A stretch of 64,000 bases of DNA from an uncultured Nitrososphaerota archaeon (GTDB lineage Archaea; Thermoproteota; Nitrososphaeria; Nitrososphaerales; Nitrosopumilaceae): assembly GCA_963701075.1 (NCBI GenBank), contig OY969559.1, forward strand, positions 1,696,001 through 1,760,000, written 5' to 3'. Below are positions 5,556 to 49,093 of the stretch, piece after piece. Position 1 is the stretch's first letter. Each line of letters opens with the position of its first letter. The notes under the pieces are model-generated. The model was given only the letters and a program-made list of their open reading frames with translations. It had not been told where the DNA came from and did no database searches. The position numbers and the translations under genes were made by a program.

Positions 5556-6707
5556 CCAACAAGTAGACTCGGTGCAATCTGCTCCACATCTTTGAACTGC
5601 TTCATAGCTTCACCTTGCACTGCGTCAGGCTCGAACCGTGCTGGTTCTTTCTGCTCCAGCATTGCCAAGCCTCTAGCCAGAATGTTCTTGCTGGCGTTGT
5701 TGTCCCTGTCTGTGGTAACACGACAGGTAGGACATCTCATCATTCGGCGCTCTTCGGGTATCATTTTTGACCCACATGCCGCACACTTCGATGAGGTTCC
5801 ATTTGGTTTTACAAAAATTACTTCAAGGCCATTACAATCAACTGACTTGTATTCGATCATCTTTTGCAACTTGAATCTTGACCATGAGTTTAACCTGAAT
5901 CTAAATTTTTCCCTGACCATTTCCTTTTCTGTATAATCTTCTTATTCCGGTGAGATTCTCCATTATGACTTGTCTTCCTTGCGATATAATCTCCTTTGAT
6001 TTCTGGTGCAGGAATGTATCTTCCTTGTTTTTCTGCTTCTTGCCATATTTTTGTGCTAGATTCCTTCTGATCCTGTGGTCATTTCTTGTAAAGTGCGACA
6101 GTGTATCTCTGTATTTTATTTTCATTGATACGATATCAGATGTATCTACTATTGTAGTGATATCGCTTTCATCTGTACCAGTTGCGTTCTCAAGATTCAT
6201 GTCAATTCCAATGTATCCAGCCGGTTCCTTTCCTGATACCTCTCTTGTATAGGATATTGAGAGTTTTTCACCAGTTAATGTAACCTCGCCTAGTTTCAGA
6301 CCTGGTTGCAACAAAACATTACAGGTATGGTGATTTAGGTGAATGTAGACAAACTGTCTTGGTCTAACCGGAAACTTGAGATGGTTGTGGATTATCTCGT
6401 ATCTCTGGTTATCAATTACTAGTATGCATCTTTTCATAAATGGTATCTTTACACTTGCATTCTTCTTTTTTGCTCGACGATAGTTTTTGAGCATGGTACA
6501 GGCCTTCCAGATTGCAGTATAGACATATCCAGAATACATCGTCTTGTTTAACCTTGGGTAGACAAGACTACGCAGTTTGAATCGTGAGGTGATATCATGT
6601 TCGATACCAAGCCTTATTGCCTCGTTTACAACAAACCTGAAATCCTCCATCACTGGTAAAATCTCGGTACAGCGATGATTCTGTGTTGCACACTTGACTG
6701 ATAGCAC
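5552..6707 (-). CDS. tnpB: TnpB RNA-guided endonuclease (OrfB family), 1-nt deletion in the A run at 5906-5910
   Basis: RuvC-I GIDMN, RuvC-II MENL, Zn finger CAAC...CPTC, RuvC-III DRDNNAS; one extra A joins GNGQGK to KFRFRLNSWS. Confidence 0.9.
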
Positions 6708-6785
6708 GGCAGGCTTTTGATATCTCTGATCTTCTTAAAAAGAAGGTAATTGTGATATACCACAAAAAGTTTGCAATGCCTGACC

Positions 6786-6808
6786 ATGAGCCATCAATTG
6801 ACAGAACC
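6786..6808 (-). repeat. Terminal inverted repeat upstream of tnpB
   Basis: Minus strand reads ggttctgtcaattgatggctcat. Confidence 0.8.
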
Positions 6809-7379
6809 TAATTTCAACAATATTTTTGCAACGCTGGCACCAATCATTTTGACTTGCTCTTCTTGTTTTTTGTCCTTTAGTGTTCCATCCGCATTAAAGG
6901 CTTCATGGGCTTTTCCAATAGCAACCTGGTCTGGCATAACAAGTACTCCTATATTTCCAAGTATGGATCTGGCATGAACTAGCCCTCTAAGACCGCCTAG
7001 TCCTCCAGGAGAAGCACTCATGATACCTGCAACTTTTCCTTTAAAACAAGCTAAACTCAGCTTCACCTTCAGACTGGCGCGATGTCCAGTCAATTGTATT
7101 TTTGAAAACAGCAGAGACCGAGCTGTTGTATTCTGGCGAAGAGATGAGAAAGCCTTGATGTGTCAACATCAGGTCCTTTAGCTTGCGCGCATTAGGAGGT
7201 AGCCCTTCTCGCTGTTCCAAGTCACCATCATAAAGGGGCATAGGAAAATCTCTAAGATCAACCACAGTCACATCCGCACCTGTTTCTGTTGCACCAGTTA
7301 CGGCTATCCTGATTAGTTTTTTATTAAATGAATCAGTACGGGTGCTTCCTGCAAATGCAAGTATTTTTGGTTTTGGCAT
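6794..7379 (-). CDS. NAD(P)H-dependent FMN reductase (ChrR/SsuE-like), 1-nt insertion at 7058
   Basis: GSTR..SFN, SPEYN.S....KN.IDW.SR, SASPG..GG.R; removing C7058 restores EGEASLACFKGK; last codons and stop come from the TnpB element end. Confidence 0.88.
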
Positions 7380-20418: not shown

Positions 20419-21228
20419 ATGTCAGACGATACAATTAGACTAGTTCAGTCACTTATTGATTCTAAAAAAGGAGATGCAGGTAGATTACAACAAATTTTGG
20501 ATACATTACAGCAAGGCAAGTCTCTTGACATTTCTGATCAAAATTACTTGCAAGAAATTTCCGCAGAACCACCAAAACAGCCAGATGAAGGCCCTGCAAT
20601 GGTTTCCGGCATTCCCGAAGATGAAACTTCGGACAAGCAAGAGTCTTTTGATTCTCTAGAATCTGCTCCCAAAGAGGAAGAGACCAGCGAGGCCCTCGAT
20701 GATGATGCCGGAATACGAGATGCCAGAAATGCACCTTCAAGAAAAAAGATTGCAGTGGTGGCAGCGGTGATTGTTGCGATAGTTGTGGCATATGTAGGAC
20801 TTGATTCCTATGCAGTAAGTACGCTCCAGTTCCGCCCTGATGCAGAAAATCAATATCAAATGTCGCCCACGCAGATCCACATACAGGCAGATGTGTGCAA
20901 TCCTTCCTTCTTTCCCGCAAGTTTTAACAAGTATGAGATAACCGCATTTTACAATTCAAGTGTCATAGAAACGGCAGAAATGGGCGGAGCCACATTATCT
21001 TCCAAGACCATGTCTACTGTCGATGGCGTCTTTTCATTAAATGCAGATGCCATACTCAAACTAAAACAAGAGAATGCCACATTTGATCCAACATTGGCAA
21101 AGATTACCACTAGTGTTGATGCCCCAATATTTGGAATAATTCCATTTTCTGTGGTAAAGCAATATTCTGCGCAGCAATTCCATGATGTACTCAAAAATGG
21201 CCCTCCTGGTTCTTTTAGTTGCGACTAG
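20419..21228 (+). CDS. Membrane protein: N-terminal GDxxRL domain, acidic linker, TM helix, LEA2-like domain
   Basis: Motifs read directly; CNPSF.P pattern after the TM helix. Confidence 0.6.
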   Translation: MSDDTIRLVQSLIDSKKGDAGRLQQILDTLQQGKSLDISDQNYLQEISAEPPKQPDEGPAMVSGIPEDETSDKQESFDSLESAPKEEETSEALDDDAGIRDARNAPSRKKIAVVAAVIVAIVVAYVGLDSYAVSTLQFRPDAENQYQMSPTQIHIQADVCNPSFFPASFNKYEITAFYNSSVIETAEMGGATLSSKTMSTVDGVFSLNADAILKLKQENATFDPTLAKITTSVDAPIFGIIPFSVVKQYSAQQFHDVLKNGPPGSFSCD

Positions 21229-23191: not shown

Positions 23192-24052
23192 ATGCCTGCA
23201 TCAACAGACAGTAGTCCGGAAGACATACTAAAAGCAGAACAACAGTTTTCCAAACCACACCGTAAAACTCTACGTAAGGAGTTCTACACTCTTGCGATAA
23301 AATTCATTGTGGTATCAGTAGGTTCATGGATTTCTCTTCACCTGTTTGAATTATTTGTGGCACCGTCGCTTGGTGTCACACACACTCACATTCAGATTGT
23401 AAGTGTCATAGCCATAGTAATCATATCATTTGCCGTAATCAAAGCAACAAGACGTCTGCTTAAGGAATTTGCAAGAAAAACGCACCCACAGTTTTCTGCC
23501 AGCTTGTCATTTTTTATAATAATATTTGTCTCCCTTATTGCAAGTTTTGCCATTTTGCATCAATTAAACGTCAACCCACAAGAGATCCTAATCAGTGGGG
23601 GTGTAGCTGCAATCATTTTAGGTATCGGAGTATCCACCATCATAGGAAACATACTTTCAGGCGGATTGATACTTACAACTTATCCTGCCAAGATTGGAGA
23701 TACCATTCATGTTGTAGGTGACAACATTCGAGGAAAGATTGACGAGATCAACATGTTTTACACAAAAATACAGACTGATGAAGGCAAAGAATACATCATA
23801 CCAAACAACGCAATAATACAAGGCAACGTCAGAATACTAAAGGACATTCCAATTACAGAACAGTTGCCCTATTCTGAAGGCGACGTAGTAGAGATAACAG
23901 GTTCACTTGAAAAATATATTGGAACAGTAATCAGAATCACATCAAAATTTACTACAATCCTAAATGACGAGCGAACCAAAGAATACATCTTGGCAAACAG
24001 CATGGTTTTGCAAGGCAATTTTACCATAGTAAAACATAGGACAAAATCCTAA
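23192..24052 (+). CDS. MscS-family mechanosensitive channel
   Basis: TM helices, GV..IILG.G....IGNI.SG, P.KIGD.I, YIIPN. Confidence 0.82.
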   Translation: MPASTDSSPEDILKAEQQFSKPHRKTLRKEFYTLAIKFIVVSVGSWISLHLFELFVAPSLGVTHTHIQIVSVIAIVIISFAVIKATRRLLKEFARKTHPQFSASLSFFIIIFVSLIASFAILHQLNVNPQEILISGGVAAIILGIGVSTIIGNILSGGLILTTYPAKIGDTIHVVGDNIRGKIDEINMFYTKIQTDEGKEYIIPNNAIIQGNVRILKDIPITEQLPYSEGDVVEITGSLEKYIGTVIRITSKFTTILNDERTKEYILANSMVLQGNFTIVKHRTKS

Positions 24053-24449: not shown

Positions 24450-24872
24450 CTAGGTTACTGTTATCTTCATGGTAAGAGGCGATGACAAGGCATCAGGATT
24501 GCTTATCCCTGACCAAACATAAATCTGCGCGGTATAATTTCCAGGTACTGTCGGCGTCCAAGATTGCGACGGGTTAAGTGTCTGTCCAGCACTTAGTGTT
24601 CCTGTAATCCATGAAAGCTGAACTGCAACTCCATTCTTGTCTATCACTTGAACGATATACGCAAATGGTTGGTCTGTGTTAAGGCCACTTGTTAGATCGG
24701 CTGTAATTTGCACTTGCTTATTTGTAGGAACTGTCCAGACCCCGTTTTGCAGGCTGGCTGACACTCCAGAAAGCTGTGAATGTGCCAAGGGTATTGTCGA
24801 GGATAGGGCAAATAGAATCATGACTGAGAAGGCAATCCATCTTTTCATTAGATTACTTTTCTCTAGTCCCAT
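24450..24872 (-). CDS. Secreted Ig-like beta-sandwich protein (AOA-type)
   Basis: Signal peptide; QPFAYIVQV.D..G....LSW..G.L, SWTP..PG.YTA...VW. Confidence 0.75.
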   Translation of the reverse strand: MGLEKSNLMKRWIAFSVMILFALSSTIPLAHSQLSGVSASLQNGVWTVPTNKQVQITADLTSGLNTDQPFAYIVQVIDKNGVAVQLSWITGTLSAGQTLNPSQSWTPTVPGNYTAQIYVWSGISNPDALSSPLTMKITVT

Positions 24873-24896
24873 TTTTTAGCGTTTGTTATTTTGTGA

Positions 24897-25379
24897 CTAG
24901 TTCTTTCTTCGTTTGATTGAGAGGGTTTTCTGTACTTCGTTAATACTGCTCAGAAACTTTTGCTTTGCCTCATACTCGTCTGTTACCTTGATCAAAATCT
25001 CAGTAGGAGAAAACATGACGTCTTTTACAAGTATGGGCAAGCTCAATCCCAAAAGCTCGCTTAGTATGTCAAATATGTTTCTAAACGTGGAACCGCCTTT
25101 GTACTTGAAAAGAGTGTTACCATCTGCAATCTTTGGATTTGGTTCCAGTGGAATCACAAGTTCTTGCGATGTGAATTCGGTGATAAATGTAGAAATGTCT
25201 TCGTTTATCTTAGTTGTTAGAGTTTCCTTTTCTCCCATGAGCTTTTCCTTTGCAGATTCCAACTCTTTTGTGGAATCGTTGTATTGCTCACCTATCATCT
25301 TTGCAAAATTTGATTCAGTTGATATTTTGAGTGGAATTTCATGAATTCTAAAATTTATTGCAGATAGACTCGGTTTCAA
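24897..25379 (-). CDS. Hypothetical protein with coiled coil, directly downstream of the tubulin-like gene
   Basis: Heptad-like ELESAKEKL segment; start uncertain. Confidence 0.6.
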   Translation of the reverse strand: MKPSLSAINFRIHEIPLKISTESNFAKMIGEQYNDSTKELESAKEKLMGEKETLTTKINEDISTFITEFTSQELVIPLEPNPKIADGNTLFKYKGGSTFRNIFDILSELLGLSLPILVKDVMFSPTEILIKVTDEYEAKQKFLSSINEVQKTLSIKRRKN

Positions 25380-25451
25380 CGTCAGTTAGTCGCTGTCTAT
25401 TTTTCTTAATTTGGGTTGCAACTTGTTCCAAGAAATTAAAGTCTGCCATAC

Positions 25452-26847
25452 CTAAGCACTAAACTGATGAACGACGTCCATTAGGCTTTGTTTGAACTCT
25501 TCATTTGTTAGTCCCCATTTGCCATATTCTTCCTTGTAACTATCCCAGGAGGCTTCTGCCTCGCTTGCAATTTCCAAAATCTTGGGCCCAATTGCCTTTG
25601 TGTTTACAAGTATTGTGACATTAGCTTGCTCTGTCTCCAGTATAGGAATCTTGACAAATATCATTCTAGAGTCTTCAATATGGAACCTGTCCTTTATCAT
25701 GTTCTTTAGGATCTCTCTTTCTTTTACATCAAATTCTCCTTTGATTTTGACTAGTGCGACACAAGAATCGCGTTGTCCTCCCTTATCTCTGATATCATTT
25801 TCGTCGATATCAAACAATACTGCATCATCTTTTTTGTGAATGTGATCTGTAATTGCATCCATGGTATTTCCCTTGCCTGCAGACATCAAGTCATTTCCCC
25901 ATTGCTTTTCCTCTGGGACAACTGGAATCACCCATGGTACTGCAAATCTTGGCATCTTTGTTGCAAGCCATGTCCTATAGTTTGACATGTCCCACTCGGT
26001 CTCTCTTGCAAATGATGCAATAAACATGGACATTGCGTTTGCGGCAATCAGGTTCATGCCTTTGTAATCCTTCCAGCCTATTTCATGTTCTTTTGGAAGA
26101 TCATCAATGATTGACTGTATTTTTTCAATTTTTTTCTCATTTTTGTGAGCAACCTCCCTTAGTCTCTTGTTTGAGAACAGGATCGCGCAATCACTGTACT
26201 TTATCTGGTATTCAAGATTCATCACTATGTTGATTGCAGCTGCCTCAAAAATCACCGGGTCCCATCCAAATTCTGGCAAAAGTCCAAACGATGCTATTGT
26301 TGCATGTTCCTTGGAATCCTTCTTTATGTATTCCATAAATGCACTGGCAAATGAACTCCCAGTTCCTCCGCCCATTGCAAAAGGTATTGTAAAGCCCCTG
26401 ACAGGTTCAGGCGATAGCCCTGACAGTTGTTTTTGCAAATCATACTTTTGAGTTACATCAACAGTAAACCTGCTTCTTCCTTCAGCCCAGTTTCTTGCAG
26501 CACCACCTGCTCCATGGATTACATGTTTATCGCGAAGTGCAAACAGATCAGGATATGATTGCAGTATCAGATTCAGCTGCCCTTGGGTCCAAATCAACCA
26601 ACAAGGCCCTTGGAATCAGCGGAATATCATGTCCTCCATAAGAAGTTGGAAATCGTAAAATTGTGCTGCCGTATCTTTTCAAAACACGAGACTCATCTTT
26701 TTCTCCTTTTAATGTAGGCTTGAGAGGATCAGCCCCTACATCAATCAATAATCTTCTGTATGCCTCTGCACCCAAACCTATTCCGCAATGACCAAAACAT
26801 GTCATCAATACTGGCGCTGGTGGTAGCGGGGCATTAAGATTTGACAA
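25452..26847 (-). CDS. Tubulin-like GTPase (artubulin-type), 1-nt insertion at 26574
   Basis: FGHCG..LG (T1), PRALLVDLDP, GAARNWAEG, GGGTGS, DCAILFSN..L; removing C26574 restores DPRAANLILQSYPDLF. Confidence 0.85.
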
Positions 26848-27027
26848 TACTAATCATCATACTACAGAGAACTGCTCACTTTAATCGGATAGTGTAAGAT
26901 TGTAAAGTCGATACTTGATTGTTATAGACATGCAAATAAGGTCAGTACGCTTGAATGCATCACACGTATGACAAATAATTCTTTTTTAAATTTAAAAATT
27001 AAGAAAAAATCATTCTTTTGAAAAAAT

Positions 27028-33424: not shown

Positions 33425-34975
33425 GTGAAGAAGAACACAAAAAAGCTTTTTGCTTTTGGTTTTATGGCAATTTTTATAATTTCAACTATTACTGTAGTGG
33501 GAGCAGGTTACTTTCATGGTAACCCGCAACAGACAACCCCCCCAGCTGCCTTGACTGGAACGCCTGAGGACAATTATTCTCCTGACAAGAGAACAACTTT
33601 TTGCCAAAGTCAAAATGATACAGAGTCAACAAAATACATTACCGAGTTTAAGATTCCAACCCTGTGCACACAACCTCTTGCAGTTATCACCGATCCTTCT
33701 GGAAATGTGTGGTTTACCGAAACTAATACTGGAAATATTGGAGAGTTTGTTCCCGCCACGTCTTCATTTCATGAATTTGACAACCCATTATGGCAGAAAG
33801 GAGAGAAATCAATGCTATGGGGAATCTACTATGCCCCTGACGGTAACATTTGGTTTAGTGATTCACAGCACAGCTTGATATGGGAATTTAATACACAATC
33901 AAAGAATTATTCAAGTTTCATATTTCCAAAGACTACAGATCAATCAGAGTCATTTCCTCAGATGCTAAAGCCTGATGGTTCTGATATCATGGTAAATGAC
34001 TTTACGGGGAAAAAAGTTGCCGTTTTCAGTACAGACCAAACTGGTAATGACTTGACTACAACCAATATCATCTCTCCTGGAAATTATAACTTTACAAGCG
34101 ACATGGCAACTGACTCTACAAACAAAATTTGGTATACAGTGTGGAACTATCAGCTGGGAGGTCTTCTTGTAAGCTATAACCCACAGACTTCACAGTTCTC
34201 AAACTATACACTTCCTACTGGAATACTTGCACCAAATGGAATCTCAGTTGGGCCCAATGGCAAGATATGGCTGACAGATACTGCAAGTAGCATGTTTGTT
34301 AGTTTTGACCCACAGTCTCAGCAATTTACGAAATATATCACTGCGCCACCACAACTCTCGACGTATGGCAACGTCTCAGGACTGATAAAGACTCCAATTA
34401 CAAGACCGTATTGGAATCAATTCGATAGTCAAGGAAGGCTTTGGTTCAACGAGCAAGTAGCAAACTCACTAGCAGTATTTGACCCAATAAAAGAATCTCT
34501 TGTAGAATACTTGGTACCGTCAAAGAACCCCAACTGGTCAGATTGCGGTAACCAGACCGATTGTGGAGTGGCCCAAGTGCTCGCTTTTACGGTTGCAGAC
34601 AACAAGGTATGGTTTCCAGAGTGGGTTGAAAATAACATTGGCGTGCTAGACCCAACTGTTCCACTACCACTTGCTCTGAATGCATCTACTACAGTGGTCA
34701 CCCTACACAGAGGTCAGAATGAAACCGTGAATGTTACACTCAGTCCAAATGAGCAGCTAACCAGTACAGTGGATATACTTACACAGCAAACAGCAAATAC
34801 GCAAGACCTTAGCGTTACACCAACCAATCAGACAATTACATTGGATAAACAAAAAACCATACCAGTAAATCTGGCTGCTGACGATTTTGCGCTTTCAGGT
34901 ACATACAAGGTTGTGGTTGCGGCAAGATACCAAGATGTAACAATATCGCAATTCATTACAGTTACCATACAGTAA
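33425..34975 (+). CDS. Membrane-anchored Vgb-lyase-like beta-propeller protein
   Basis: Repeated P....D..G.IW F(T/S/N)E blades; N-terminal TM helix. Confidence 0.8.
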   Translation: MKKNTKKLFAFGFMAIFIISTITVVGAGYFHGNPQQTTPPAALTGTPEDNYSPDKRTTFCQSQNDTESTKYITEFKIPTLCTQPLAVITDPSGNVWFTETNTGNIGEFVPATSSFHEFDNPLWQKGEKSMLWGIYYAPDGNIWFSDSQHSLIWEFNTQSKNYSSFIFPKTTDQSESFPQMLKPDGSDIMVNDFTGKKVAVFSTDQTGNDLTTTNIISPGNYNFTSDMATDSTNKIWYTVWNYQLGGLLVSYNPQTSQFSNYTLPTGILAPNGISVGPNGKIWLTDTASSMFVSFDPQSQQFTKYITAPPQLSTYGNVSGLIKTPITRPYWNQFDSQGRLWFNEQVANSLAVFDPIKESLVEYLVPSKNPNWSDCGNQTDCGVAQVLAFTVADNKVWFPEWVENNIGVLDPTVPLPLALNASTTVVTLHRGQNETVNVTLSPNEQLTSTVDILTQQTANTQDLSVTPTNQTITLDKQKTIPVNLAADDFALSGTYKVVVAARYQDVTISQFITVTIQ

Positions 34976-34979
34976 AGAA

Positions 34980-36181
34980 GTGGTCCCAAAGACTAGATAA
35001 TTTAATTGGAATTTCCATCTATTGTACCAATACACAAGGTACTGGAGGAAAGATACGAACAAGCCAAGACCAATTCTTTGTGTCCGAAGTCTTGCGCGAG
35101 AAGACACTTGCAAAGATTTCACAGTCTGGAAACTATGCAGTCTTTAGGTTAAAAAAATCTGGAATTGATACAAACCATGTACTCTCAGACATATTAAAAA
35201 AACAGGGCTTGCGATTGAAGGCACTTGGCCTAAAGGACGCAAATGCCACAACTGAGCAGTTTGTTTGCGACATGAATGCCTCACGTATGCATGAAAACAT
35301 AACAACAAACAGGTATACACTTGAAAGAATCGGTTTTGTTCAAAAACCTCTTACAAAAAAGGACATGGTTGGAAATCATTTCAAGATCAAGATAGAGGAT
35401 GCGGATTTTGCAAAGATTTCAGGTTTTGACCAGTATGATAAGATTCTAAACTTTTACGGATACCAGAGATTTGGGAGCAGAAGAGCAGTCTCGCATCTCA
35501 TAGGAAAGGCAATGTTGCAGAGAAACTTTGACCTAGCCGTTGAAGTCCTACTTTCATCAACCTCAGAGTATGACTTTCCTGAAAACAACAAGATCAGGGA
35601 GGCGCTCAAGGACAAGGCAAACTATTTAAAAATTTTCGATGACGTGCCTCCACAGATGGATACCGAGAGAGTTGTCCTAAAAGAAATGATAGAGCACGGT
35701 GATGCACTAAAGGCATTGCGTGCCATACCAATATCTCTGAGAAGATTTTTTGTTGAGGCATATCAATCATTTATCTTCAATCGCACTGTCAGCATGGCAT
35801 ACGAAATGGGCGAGAATATGTTAGCGCCACAAGCAGATGATGTGTGTTATGACAGGGACGATAATCTCGGCAGATATCAAAATGATCCAGAACAAAAGCC
35901 TGTCCATACCTCTTGTCGGGTACTCATATTCAAAGAGAAACAGGTTTGACTATCAGATATCAAAGATACTTGGCGAAGAGCAGATGAGCCCAAAAGATTT
36001 CTTTGTAAAAGAGATGCAAGAGATAAGTGGAGAGGGCGGATTCAGGCATGCCGTCATGCTCTGCAGAGATTTTGCATCAAGCCCGCCACATGTAAGTTTC
36101 ACACTTTCAAGAGGCTCGTATGCAACCATGTTGCTAAGAGAGATAATCAAGCCATCTGATCCTGTTGCAGCTGGTTTCTGA
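34980..36181 (+). CDS. truD: tRNA pseudouridine(13) synthase TruD; apparent frameshifts near 34988-34990 and 35899
   Basis: GLKDA.ATT.Q, GNHF.I, NFYGYQRFG, AYQSFIFN, F.L.RGSYAT.LLRE. Confidence 0.88.
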
Positions 36182-36250
36182 GAAAATGTAAAATCAACTG
36201 CCAATTTATCAGCGTCATAATTTTTATTGTCATTTCTCCAACATGCAAAC

Positions 36251-37742
36251 ATGTTCGACAAGTTTTACACCAAAGTAACAAAGGCTCCAGAATTTCCGTC
36301 CAACTTTGACTGGATTAACTCAAACGAGCCTCTCTCACTTGAGAAACTCAGGGGACATGTAATTGTTCTAGACTTTTGGACATATTGCTGCATAAACTGC
36401 ATGCACACACTGCCTGTCTTGGCCCAACTTGAAAGAAAATACGAGGAAAAACCAGTGGTATTCATTGGAGTTCATTCTGCAAAATTTTTCAACGAACAAG
36501 ACAGAAACAACATAGAGCAGGCCGTGAGAAGATACGAGATCTCTCATCCCGTTTTAGTAGATAAGCAGATGACAGTCTGGCAAAAATATGACGTCAGCGG
36601 CTGGCCTACAATTGTAATCATCGACCCAAGCGGCACCATAGTGTACAAGCAATCAGGGGAGGGCCAGAAAGAAGTGATAGAGGATACAATAGATGTACTG
36701 CTAGAAAAATATGGTAAAAGCGGAGATTTTGCCAAGGTGCCAATCAAAATTACTCGTCACATTCCCCAAGACAAGACAACTCTTTCTTATCCCGGCAAAT
36801 TATCCATATCAAATGGCAAGGTAGCAATCTCTGATTCAAATCACAACCGAATTGTCGTGACAGATATGACAGGCAAGATTGAGCACATCATAGGAAGTGG
36901 AAAGATAGGACTGGTCGATGGAAATTTTGCAGACGCCGCGTTTTTCAGGCCGCAGGGAGTGGTTTTCAAAGACAACACAATCTTTGTTGCCGATACTGAA
37001 AACCACGCCATACGAAAGATAGACATGGTTACAAGTAAAGTAACCACAGTTGCAGGTACCGGAAAACAAGGACCTTGGATGTCAAGTGGTGGAAAAGGAA
37101 AAGAGGCATCGCTTTCTTCACCTTGGGATGTCACTGCAAAAGACAATCTCATTTTCATTGCCATGGCAGGAAACCACCAGATATGGACATATGACACCAA
37201 GACAGACATGACATACCCTTTTGCAGGAAATGGTTATGAAAATATCATAGATGGTGACAGGATGAGAGCACAGCTGAGCTCAGCCAAGCGGTCTTTCAAT
37301 ATCGGATGACAGATTATATTTTGCAGATAGTGAAACTTCATCAATTCGCGAGGTAGACCTCCAGTCAGGGTATGTCAGAACAATTGTAGGACAGGGGCTT
37401 TTTTCCTTTGGATACAAAGACGGACATCATGATGAGGCACTCTTCCAGCACCCGCTTGGATTGTGTGCAACATCAAACCAAGTTTTTGTTGCAGACACCT
37501 ACAACTCTGCACTAAGAGCCATAGATTTGAAAAATGAGAATGTGACAACAATAATTGGAAAGCAAGGCATGTCTGGAATTTGTAGACTTGGTGACCCAAG
37601 TTGTGATTCTCTTGGACTCTACGAGCCAAGCGATGTCAAGTTTTACCAAGACAGGCTATACATTTCAGACACCAACAATCATTTGATACGAGTCTATGAT
37701 CTCAAAACAAATGTTCTCAAAACTCTGGAAATTACCAATTAG
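36251..37742 (+). CDS. Thioredoxin-like plus NHL-repeat protein (NHLRC2/SOQ1-like), 1-nt insertion at 37276
   Basis: LDFWTYCCINCMH, GVHSAKF, NHL blades; removing G37276 restores AQLAQPSGLS...ADSETSSIR. Confidence 0.87.
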
Positions 37743-48139: not shown

Positions 48140-49093
48140 ATGGAATTTCAAATACAAGATCCAATCTTAGTTGTTGGATTGGGCGGAGCAGGCTGCAGAC
48201 TGGCTACAAGCATAAAGGAAAGGCTTGGCTGTGATTCTCTCCTAATAAGCCATGACCCAAAAGACCTAAACCACGACTCTTCGAAGATTTTGATAAATAC
48301 CAATCCTGTTCTCAACCCTTCAGCATATCTTATCAGAGGAATATCATTTGGAGCAAGAGGCTCGATTGCACAGAAATTAGAATCCTATTCCACTATAATG
48401 ATTGTAGCCAACTTGGCAGGAAAATCTGGCGCCGCTTTGGCTCCAGTAGTATCCCAGATTGGCAAAGAATTAGGCAAAAGCGTACTTTCCTTTGGAATAA
48501 TGCCCTTCAAGTTTGAAAAAGACAGGATCTTCTTCTCAGGGGTTTCATTGAAGAGACTAAAGGCAAATTCAGATTGTACAATAATCATTGATAATGATGC
48601 TTTGCTTGACAGCAATCCTGACCTGACACCTGATTCTTGCAATGTAATCACAAATGGAGCATTGATGCATGTTGTCTCCACCCTGAAAAATTCATCTTTG
48701 CCCCTTAAGACAAATATCCTATCAACAAGCAAAGACATATCAGATATTGAAACATCACTTAGAGATTCAATCAAGATGCTTTACGAAGACGCACCTCCAA
48801 ACAACATCAAGAGTGCATTGCTCTACGTAGTAGGCGGCAACAAAGTACCAATAGGTGTTCTAAATTCAATGGTAAGCACTGTTAGCGGCATATTCAGTAA
48901 TGACAGTACACGAGTCAGCTTGTCTGTCTCAAATGGAGAAAAATCCAAGGTTGTTTTGCTTACTTCGATAGAGGGCGAGACCCGTTTTGACAAGTACGAC
49001 CCGCTTGGAATGATTCCAAAAGAAAATGTCCTTGATTGGGACGAACCAGATGCCAGTGTAAAAATTGACTTGGATCTAGAACAGATAGAATAG
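48140..49093 (+). CDS. ftsZ: Divergent FtsZ-like protein of Nitrososphaerota
   Basis: VVGLGGAG, MPF.FE, IIDND.L; signature degenerate (AGKSGA). Confidence 0.75.
   Translation: MEFQIQDPILVVGLGGAGCRLATSIKERLGCDSLLISHDPKDLNHDSSKILINTNPVLNPSAYLIRGISFGARGSIAQKLESYSTIMIVANLAGKSGAALAPVVSQIGKELGKSVLSFGIMPFKFEKDRIFFSGVSLKRLKANSDCTIIIDNDALLDSNPDLTPDSCNVITNGALMHVVSTLKNSSLPLKTNILSTSKDISDIETSLRDSIKMLYEDAPPNNIKSALLYVVGGNKVPIGVLNSMVSTVSGIFSNDSTRVSLSVSNGEKSKVVLLTSIEGETRFDKYDPLGMIPKENVLDWDEPDASVKIDLDLEQIE

Follow-up and report, generated by a model that had tools for sequence, protein, structure and literature searches.

The window analysed here, a stretch of 64,000 nucleotides from contig OY969559.1 of an uncultured Nitrososphaerota archaeon, carries on its minus strand a tubulin-like gene followed directly by a gene for a small protein, and each of the two is interrupted by a single extra base (Table 1). 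In 2012 Yutin and Koonin gave the name artubulin to a GTPase of the tubulin superfamily found in ammonia-oxidising Nitrososphaerales (PMC3349469), and whether this archaeal protein is related to eukaryotic tubulin has been discussed ever since. Here, we show that the locus holds an artubulin orthologue together with a partner of ~183 residues, most likely with one spurious base in each gene, and we propose that the former is probably a GTP-binding, slowly hydrolysing protein that forms protofilaments and the latter its adaptor or regulator. The family itself has already been described, and the window adds a new genus-level member to it.

The tubulin-like gene falls into two open reading frames (ORFs) on the minus strand, as the original prediction had said. 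GHCGIGLG and PRALLVDLDP are found in an ORF of 99 residues (26548-26847), and GAARNWAEG, GGGTGS and EWDMSNY in one of 381 residues (25452-26597), which accounts for all the tubulin motifs quoted at the outset. The second part matches the Pfam family Tubulin (PF00091) with an E value of 7.9e-11, scoring 43 bits where 33 are required (44.1 bits in a scan of the whole genome), and the C-terminal half of the protein is divergent. A +1 shift is required to pass from the first frame into the second, and a comparison of the DNA with 11 relatives places one extra G exactly at the predicted position 26574, GCAGCT[G]AATCTG, where all 11 read ...DLDPRAANLILQSYPDLF... in a single open frame; blastn against six loci puts the extra base at 26574/26575. 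The start site, ATG or TTG, is shared with the relatives and is followed there by one continuous frame of 428–477 residues, the shortest of which stops at a contig end. In the organism the intact artubulin most likely has 464 residues, and intact orthologues, mainly that of locus L018, were substituted for the window protein in alignments, profiles, and models.

The partner gene begins two bases past the artubulin stop codon. Its extra T, GAG[T]CTATCT, is missing in the relatives L015–L019 and L024, and the intact protein most likely has ~183 residues. The coiled-coil ORF named as a same-strand neighbor in the original prediction does lie on that strand; however, the ORF is itself frameshifted at 25368 and forms part of a longer gene that starts at 25449. 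Partner orthologues have 181–193 residues, and 15 of them share 26 invariant columns at identities down to 28%. Of 301 genomes drawn from the order, 63 yielded artubulin, across 22 of 75 genera, and the partner follows within 25 nucleotides in all of these but one (G149, a genome that is 68% complete and has artubulin and partner on different contigs). A tblastn search of 85 loci likewise found the partner directly downstream on the same strand in all 81 that had room for it. These counts include probable twin records and five unpublished genomes (G028, G019, G034, G011, and G012), from which three of the 11 relatives used in the frame comparison also come; these five served neither as a query nor as the leading sequence of an alignment, and no conclusion rests on them. 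As the partner is conserved and the other neighbors are bound to particular lineages, the core unit is artubulin plus the downstream partner.

Table 1. Positions of the genes, extra bases and neighboring features in the window, and of partner homologues at other loci.
Feature	Position	Strand	Remarks
Artubulin gene, overall	25452-26847	minus	Tubulin-like; frame broken at 26574
Artubulin, 5' part up to the extra base	26575-26847	minus	TTG start at 26847; T1 GHCGIGLG; PRALLVDLDP
Extra G splitting the artubulin frame, most likely an assembly error	26574	minus	Base missing in relatives and in short-read contigs
Artubulin, 3' part	25452-26573	minus	T3 GGAARNWAEG; T4 GGGTGSS; T7 RETEWDMSNY; stop TAG at 25452-25454
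Partner, 5' part	25369-25449	minus	ATG at 25449; MADFNFLEQVATQIKKNRQRLTDVE...; from three-frame translation and relatives' DNA; tblastn match of the L018 orthologue splits here
Extra T in the partner gene, most likely introduced by the assembly	25368	minus	Base missing in L015-L019 and L024 and from the contigs of all four runs
Partner, 3' part (the former coiled-coil ORF)	24897-25367	minus	Unmatched in Pfam, among PDB sequences and by Foldseek
AT-rich spacer containing runs of T	26848-27027	minus	Probable terminator and promoter region, judged by eye
SHOCT-like ORF, 100 residues	27028-27330	minus	Sub-threshold C-terminal SHOCT
TPR protein, 270 residues	27334-28146	minus	TPR_1, E 1.2e-46
Full-length partner homologues, genus g9	L139 6116-6766; L140 ~6637-7149	plus (L139)	No Pfam match
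Short partner homologues (129–149 residues), family f15	L141 6142-6558; L143 6838-7287; L142 6677-7066	minus; plus; plus	No Pfam match

How close is the window protein to the artubulins already known? Artubulins were defined in Nitrosoarchaeum, with Ca. N. limnia and koreensis (PMC3349469), and an excerpt from PMC3835317 describes an artubulin-like protein of Ca. Nitrosotenuis uzonensis that is 79% identical to them. At 277 of 372 positions (74%) the window protein agrees with the artubulin of L157, a locus whose gene order (MFS, TBP, MscS-like, partner, artubulin, Snf7, dCMP deaminase, DNA polymerase) fits the Nitrosarchaeum neighborhood described in PMC3349469 (legend of Fig 2B). The link to the type sequences of artubulin thus runs through the architecture of this locus and the figure of 79% published in PMC3835317, with loci titled otherwise than Nitrosarchaeum as the sequences compared. 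The closest relatives are titled Nitrosotalea, for instance Ca. Nitrosotalea devanaterra (LN890280, 83%), and Nitrosotenuis-titled loci are 78–81% identical. One further locus (L074/L127, BMAH01000059.1; 80%) comes from a record titled 'Gammaproteobacteria bacterium' and is probably a mis-binned thaumarchaeal contig. The original prediction had presented the locus as a departure from the artubulins, with altered loops; it is an orthologue instead, and the same loops occur in all 18 artubulin-family sequences that we aligned. A literature search pairing Nitrosotalea with tubulin returned nothing on the subject by title; supplements (Table S9 of PMC3835317, and those of PMC13394414) may list Nitrosotalea artubulins or the partner.

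Are the two frame breaks present in the organism or confined to its assembly? Public soil-metagenome contigs of four runs (X1, X2, and X3 from one study, X5 from another) match window positions 24800-26900 (2.1 kb) without a single substituted letter, and their only two differences from the window are the base at 26574, left out in the contigs of all three runs that cover it, and the base at 25368, left out in those of all four. A loose contig end resembles what we take to be a Nextera adapter, which suggests short-read libraries. Two other genes of the window are broken as well. The gene of tRNA pseudouridine synthase D (TruD; ~34939-36178, plus strand) is split near 35895 when compared with all three of G036, G033, and G020, where it is a single ORF of 400–412 residues, and this break is probably another one-base assembly error; a thioredoxin-NHL repeat gene (~36191-37739, plus strand) is split near 37279 in comparison with two of three congeners (G036 and G020), the protein having 499–531 residues in relatives. 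Four frame breaks within ~25 kb of the window, one of them in a housekeeping gene (TruD), together with a completeness of 94.96% for the window genome (G000) versus 99% in the single-contig congeners G014 and G184, point to an unpolished assembly. The artubulin match is split in G000 alone among the 63 artubulin-positive genomes. Hence the true frameshift that the original prediction had allowed for finds no counterpart in the short-read contigs, and the two extra bases are, as far as the sequences tell, most likely assembly errors in genes that are intact. Were the frameshifts real, the artubulin–partner module would be decaying into pseudogenes in this strain; two independent breaks do lie within 1.2 kb in adjacent genes of one module, neither extra base sits in a homopolymer, and artubulin is dispensable in relatives, as it was not found in 238 of the 301 genomes of the order. 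Nonetheless, both bases are missing from the contigs of two studies, TruD and a further gene are broken likewise within 12 kb, and the two halves carry no additional substitutions or stops and retain 94–96% protein identity to the L018 orthologue, and we regard such decay as improbable. The +1 shift between the two frames could alternatively be a programmed ribosomal frameshift at 26574 that regulates artubulin synthesis. However, the site is unconserved, with a single open frame in the 11 relatives and in all 62 other artubulin-positive genomes, inspection by eye shows neither a slippery sequence nor a stop-codon context, and the base is missing from the short-read contigs of the same strain, which leaves this explanation hardly credible.

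The assignment to the tubulins rests on several comparisons. A sequence search of the PDB gave 170 matches at E <= 0.001, and the best 60, which were inspected, are all tubulins, with neither FtsZ nor CetZ among them; Heimdall AtubB (6.3e-18) and Loki AtubA (1.6e-16) come first, followed by gamma (6.5e-13), alpha and beta (~3e-11), and Odin tubulin (8.4e-11). An hhalign comparison with 30 tubulin representatives aligned 397 columns (Prob 99.75, E 2.8e-27), artubulin residues 10–455 on tubulin residues 2–427, and so the whole tubulin fold appears to be represented, beyond the GTPase domain. In contrast, the second PF00091 protein of the genome, an FtsZ-like protein of 317 residues encoded at 48140-49093 (plus strand), could not be aligned with the artubulin profile (Prob 1.9), and Pfam FtsZ_C was not matched by the window artubulin at E <= 1. 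Among 1.84 billion representative sequences only six reached E <= 1e-30, one full-length and the rest fragments of the artubulin family; nine of the next-best full-length representatives were looked up, of which the four with a named source are all eukaryotic beta or gamma tubulins, and a fifth, unnamed, belongs to a cluster whose members are labelled 'tubulin gamma' by the Joint Genome Institute. The tubulin-like representatives share 14–21% identity with artubulin. By profile comparison, artubulin is closer to eukaryotic-type tubulins than to FtsZ, in agreement with what had been predicted. Published trees, in the portions of PMC13394414 and PMC9871819 that deal with artubulins, give them a long branch that emerges from the base of the tubulin clade or close to it. 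That the branch is very long and unstable (in the relevant part of PMC13394414), that the profile alignment is weakest over the C-terminal half, and that single-sequence matches to solved tubulins end near residue 245 could also be expected of a divergent CetZ- or FtsZ-type protein whose tubulin-like motifs arose by convergence; given the uniform PDB matches, the long tubulin alignment that the genome's own FtsZ-like protein does not share, the unmatched FtsZ_C domain, and the separation of artubulins from CetZ-like groups in the corresponding part of Santana-Molina et al. 2023 (PMC9871819), we consider this very improbable. A different matter, which concerns origin only and is compatible with an artubulin orthologue at this locus, is whether artubulin could be a derived gamma-like tubulin acquired horizontally from a eukaryote rather than an ancestral archaeal protein. 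Such a scenario is argued for in a section of bioRxiv 10.1101/005868, and of the four next-best representatives with a named source three are gamma tubulins, gamma precedes alpha and beta among the best 60 PDB matches, and artubulin is distributed patchily over 22 of 75 genera. Yet the top PDB matches are Asgard tubulins rather than gamma, the family stands alone as a tightly conserved group whose operon partner is arranged in prokaryotic style, and the direction of a transfer cannot be read from the present data; a eukaryotic origin seems to us unlikely, though it deserves more weight than any of the alternatives above.

What do the GTPase loops suggest about function? In a MAFFT alignment of the 18 artubulin-family sequences with 56 tubulin-like representatives, T1 reads GH[CA]G[IV]G[LI]G throughout the artubulin family versus GQCGNQ[IV]G in most tubulins, which bears out the unusual GHCGIGLG noticed at the start, and T3 and T4 of the family read GGAARNWA[EK]G and GGGTG[SG]SF. 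The T7/H8 segment, R-E-T-E-W-D-[MF]-S-N-[YF] in all 18, aligns with ALNVDLNEF in alpha-like, QLNADLRKL in beta-like, and YMNNDLIGL in gamma-like tubulins, and hhalign reproduces this register. In tubulin numbering the Asp aligned with Asp251 is kept, the position of Asn249 is occupied by Glu, and the position of Glu254 in alpha-tubulin (Asp212 in FtsZ) holds Asn in 18 of 18 sequences, with no acidic residue there in the family; the manual alignment behind the original prediction, in which the catalytic Glu of alpha-tubulin was missing, was therefore correct. The T7 motif is unchanged even in L103, whose copy is 54% identical to that of L018. The unusual T1 and T7 residues are, on this alignment, traits of the whole family and not local changes.

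Artubulin may well bind GTP, as T1 keeps its glycines, T3 and T4 show little change, and Asn is retained in the columns where tubulins conserve it. It would probably assemble head to tail into protofilaments, like other proteins of the tubulin/FtsZ superfamily, and a homopolymer rather than a heterodimer is to be expected because 61 of the 62 other artubulin-positive genomes have a single artubulin gene. With Asn at the position of Glu254 and Glu at that of Asn249, hydrolysis at the longitudinal interface would probably be slow, or could be carried out by another acidic residue, for which Glu282 and Glu284 (L018 numbering) would be candidates; to expect slow hydrolysis on the strength of one residue is a reasonable inference.

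If the filament has an adaptor or regulator that binds it, the presumably co-transcribed partner, with a predicted helical hairpin and a small alpha/beta domain, would be the first candidate. An AlphaFold2 model of the L018 orthologue (predicted local distance difference test, pLDDT, 88.8; predicted template-modelling score, pTM, 0.76) has helices at residues 4–37, 40–52, and 59–92, an alpha/beta domain at ~100–155 and a C-terminal helix at 158–182. Pfam was matched neither by the 160-residue partner part of the window (E <= 1) nor by the L157 partner (E <= 0.01), and the partners of L101–L103 gave weak, sub-threshold Pfam matches only; PF03357 (Snf7) in particular was unmatched by the window part and L101, L102, and L103 at E <= 1 and by L157 at E <= 0.01. 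A profile of 15 partner orthologues found no ESCRT-III chain in the PDB at E <= 10, Foldseek with the partner model found nothing in the PDB at E <= 0.001, the ESM Atlas gave no usable match, and no DNA-binding domain was detected in the partner. The VIA searches returned only generic helical-hairpin ties (Z <= 8.8) over residues 1–99, and residues 100–183 were barely covered. Judged by these searches, the partner is not Snf7; in L157 artubulin is flanked by the partner on one side and by a genuine Snf7 gene on the other. A predicted complex of artubulin and partner, from alignments of 66 and 15 rows, scored 0.00 against a mark of 0.32, which speaks neither for nor against binding.

The partner family is wider than artubulin, which is new to us. 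All seven genomes of genus g9 have full-length partner homologues (E 1e-35 to 1e-38), and one of these genomes yielded no artubulin candidate in either of two artubulin searches, one of which was run at E <= 0.001. Short forms of 125–150 residues, which match positions ~55–180, occur in 41 of the 73 genomes of family f15. The homologue of L139 follows a radical-SAM gene near archaellin-like genes, and the short forms of L141 and L143 adjoin genes that resemble, by eye, those of ribosomal protein S19e and Lrp. Separately, G039 has a second partner copy at G039:C2:8598-9137 (plus strand), far from its artubulin gene, and G056 has two artubulin–partner pairs on different contigs (C69 and C7).

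This distribution leaves room for a bolder view, which we regard as doubtful and as slightly less likely than the eukaryotic origin considered above: that artubulin and partner form a minimal cytoskeletal module of two proteins in which artubulin is unable to hydrolyse GTP in the usual way, and its filaments would persist except where the partner governs their turnover or anchoring. The usual route would be blocked by the Asn at the catalytic Glu position and by the apparent swap of Asn and Glu in T7. If this is true, artubulin would have been grafted onto an older and wider thaumarchaeal protein rather than having brought its own partner.

Some points weigh against the interpretation we prefer, an intact artubulin orthologue that would form protofilaments, with the partner as their putative adaptor or regulator. 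Polymerisation, GTPase rate, and partner binding are predictions, and no artubulin has been purified. The structure prediction for artubulin, made from 15 close orthologues, is of low confidence (pLDDT 37, pTM 0.30), and so the case for a conserved fold is that of the profile alignment alone. The comparison with CetZ is indirect, by way of ranked searches, hhalign, and published trees. The metagenome runs that cover the extra bases may derive from the same sample as the genome assembly, and contigs drop rare variants, by which a minority subpopulation with real frameshifts would be hidden. Finally, since its family occurs without artubulin in g9 and f15, the partner cannot depend strictly on artubulin.

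Upstream of artubulin, the same-strand TPR and SHOCT neighbors of the original prediction do lie on that strand, and the TPR assignment is firm (Table 1). The 100-residue ORF reaches Pfam SHOCT only below threshold (E 0.006, with 16.7 bits where 27 are required). Of the loci long enough to show it, 54 of 76 have a SHOCT-like ORF upstream, and 45 of 73 have the TPR gene, which is confined to Nitrosotalea-like loci; neither L157 nor L101–L103 nor any of the loci titled Nitrosotenuis gave a TPR match there. Both are instances of lineage-specific synteny outside the core module. Of the accessory genes that had been proposed for the filament, then, the downstream one has held up and the TPR and SHOCT-like ones have not. 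The first ~45 residues of the SHOCT-like ORF recur at the N-terminus of an ORF of 269 residues that belongs to no Pfam family and lies 6 kb away at 20419-21228 (plus strand); the two are 37% identical over 73 residues (E 6e-11).

The absence of an adjacent Snf7 gene, also part of the original prediction, was confirmed: PF03357 was not matched within the window, and the genome as a whole gave six matches at E <= 1, each of them under the cut-off and outside the window. Snf7 adjoins artubulin in one of six genomes (G146, the genome of L157) and not in G151, G061, G302, G135, or G000, so its absence is the commoner state among these; according to PMC3835317, it is likewise absent beside artubulin in Nitrosotenuis. 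Snf7 is a neighbor in one genus and stands outside the core module, and its adjacency does not define an artubulin. Mechanosensitive-channel-type genes are found near the module both in the window (23192-24052, plus strand) and in L157 (2186-3109, minus strand); this proximity is probably due to chance, as such a gene was not found in most other loci.

What does the locus contribute? The apparent pseudogene is most likely an assembly artefact, by which Nitrosotalea can be counted among the artubulin carriers, and the assembly needs polishing. The invariant, family-wide T1 and T7 residues offer a precise mutational handle on whether artubulin hydrolyses GTP and by what route. As a companion for study, the downstream partner would be the choice, and not Snf7, TPR, or SHOCT. 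The window itself adds nothing categorical to what is known of the family.

Several known systems invite comparison. BtubA and BtubB of Prosthecobacter are accompanied by BtubC, the TPR protein Bklc. The Btub locus, shown in the legend of Fig 2B of PMC3349469, resembles the artubulin locus in that a prokaryotic operon joins tubulin to a small companion of another kind, and in Nitrosotalea a TPR protein is nearby. However, unlike BtubC, the Nitrosotalea TPR gene lies two genes upstream, beyond a T-rich spacer, and is missing from L157, L101–L103, and the Nitrosotenuis-titled loci, and the constant companion of artubulin, compared by description, is not a TPR protein. TubZ with TubR (and TubY) and PhuZ are tubulin-like GTPases of plasmids and phages that work with small helical adaptors. 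They share with artubulin, again by description, a single tubulin-like GTPase encoded beside a small helical protein, whereas the artubulin locus is chromosomal and its partner lacks a detected DNA-binding domain; Santana-Molina et al., in the part of PMC9871819 on this question, argue against a relationship between TubZ and artubulin.

The partner recalls ESCRT-III in that its residues 1–99 form an antiparallel helical hairpin, which superposes on the Snf7 core (5fd9, Z 7.7), on Asgard ESCRT-IIIB (Z 7.5), and on the CHMP4B hairpin (Z 7.5). These scores are unspecific, as they tie with those of Smc coiled coils, the dynein stalk, and designed hairpins (Z 7.4–8.8); in contrast to ESCRT-III, all five partner sequences leave PF03357 unmatched at the thresholds given above. 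The superposition covers the hairpin, and residues 100–183 are modelled as an alpha/beta domain.

With the eukaryotic gamma, alpha, and beta tubulins and the Asgard AtubA, AtubB, and Odin tubulins, artubulin shares profile homology over its whole length, the motifs PRAxLxDL(D/E)P, G(G/A)xNxWAxG, and GGGTGS, and the conserved Asn columns; it differs from them in its low sequence identity, its T1 loop GHCGIGLG, and the Asn and Glu at the positions of Glu254 and Asn249. The closest counterparts are the artubulins of Nitrosoarchaeum and Nitrosotenuis, which belong to the same family, carry the same motifs, and occur in the same host order, and Nitrosotenuis also shares the missing adjacent Snf7. 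The window gene differs from the known artubulins in its genus, Nitrosotalea by record titles, and in being split by an extra base in this assembly, and from that of Nitrosoarchaeum in having a TPR and a SHOCT-like gene upstream in place of Snf7.

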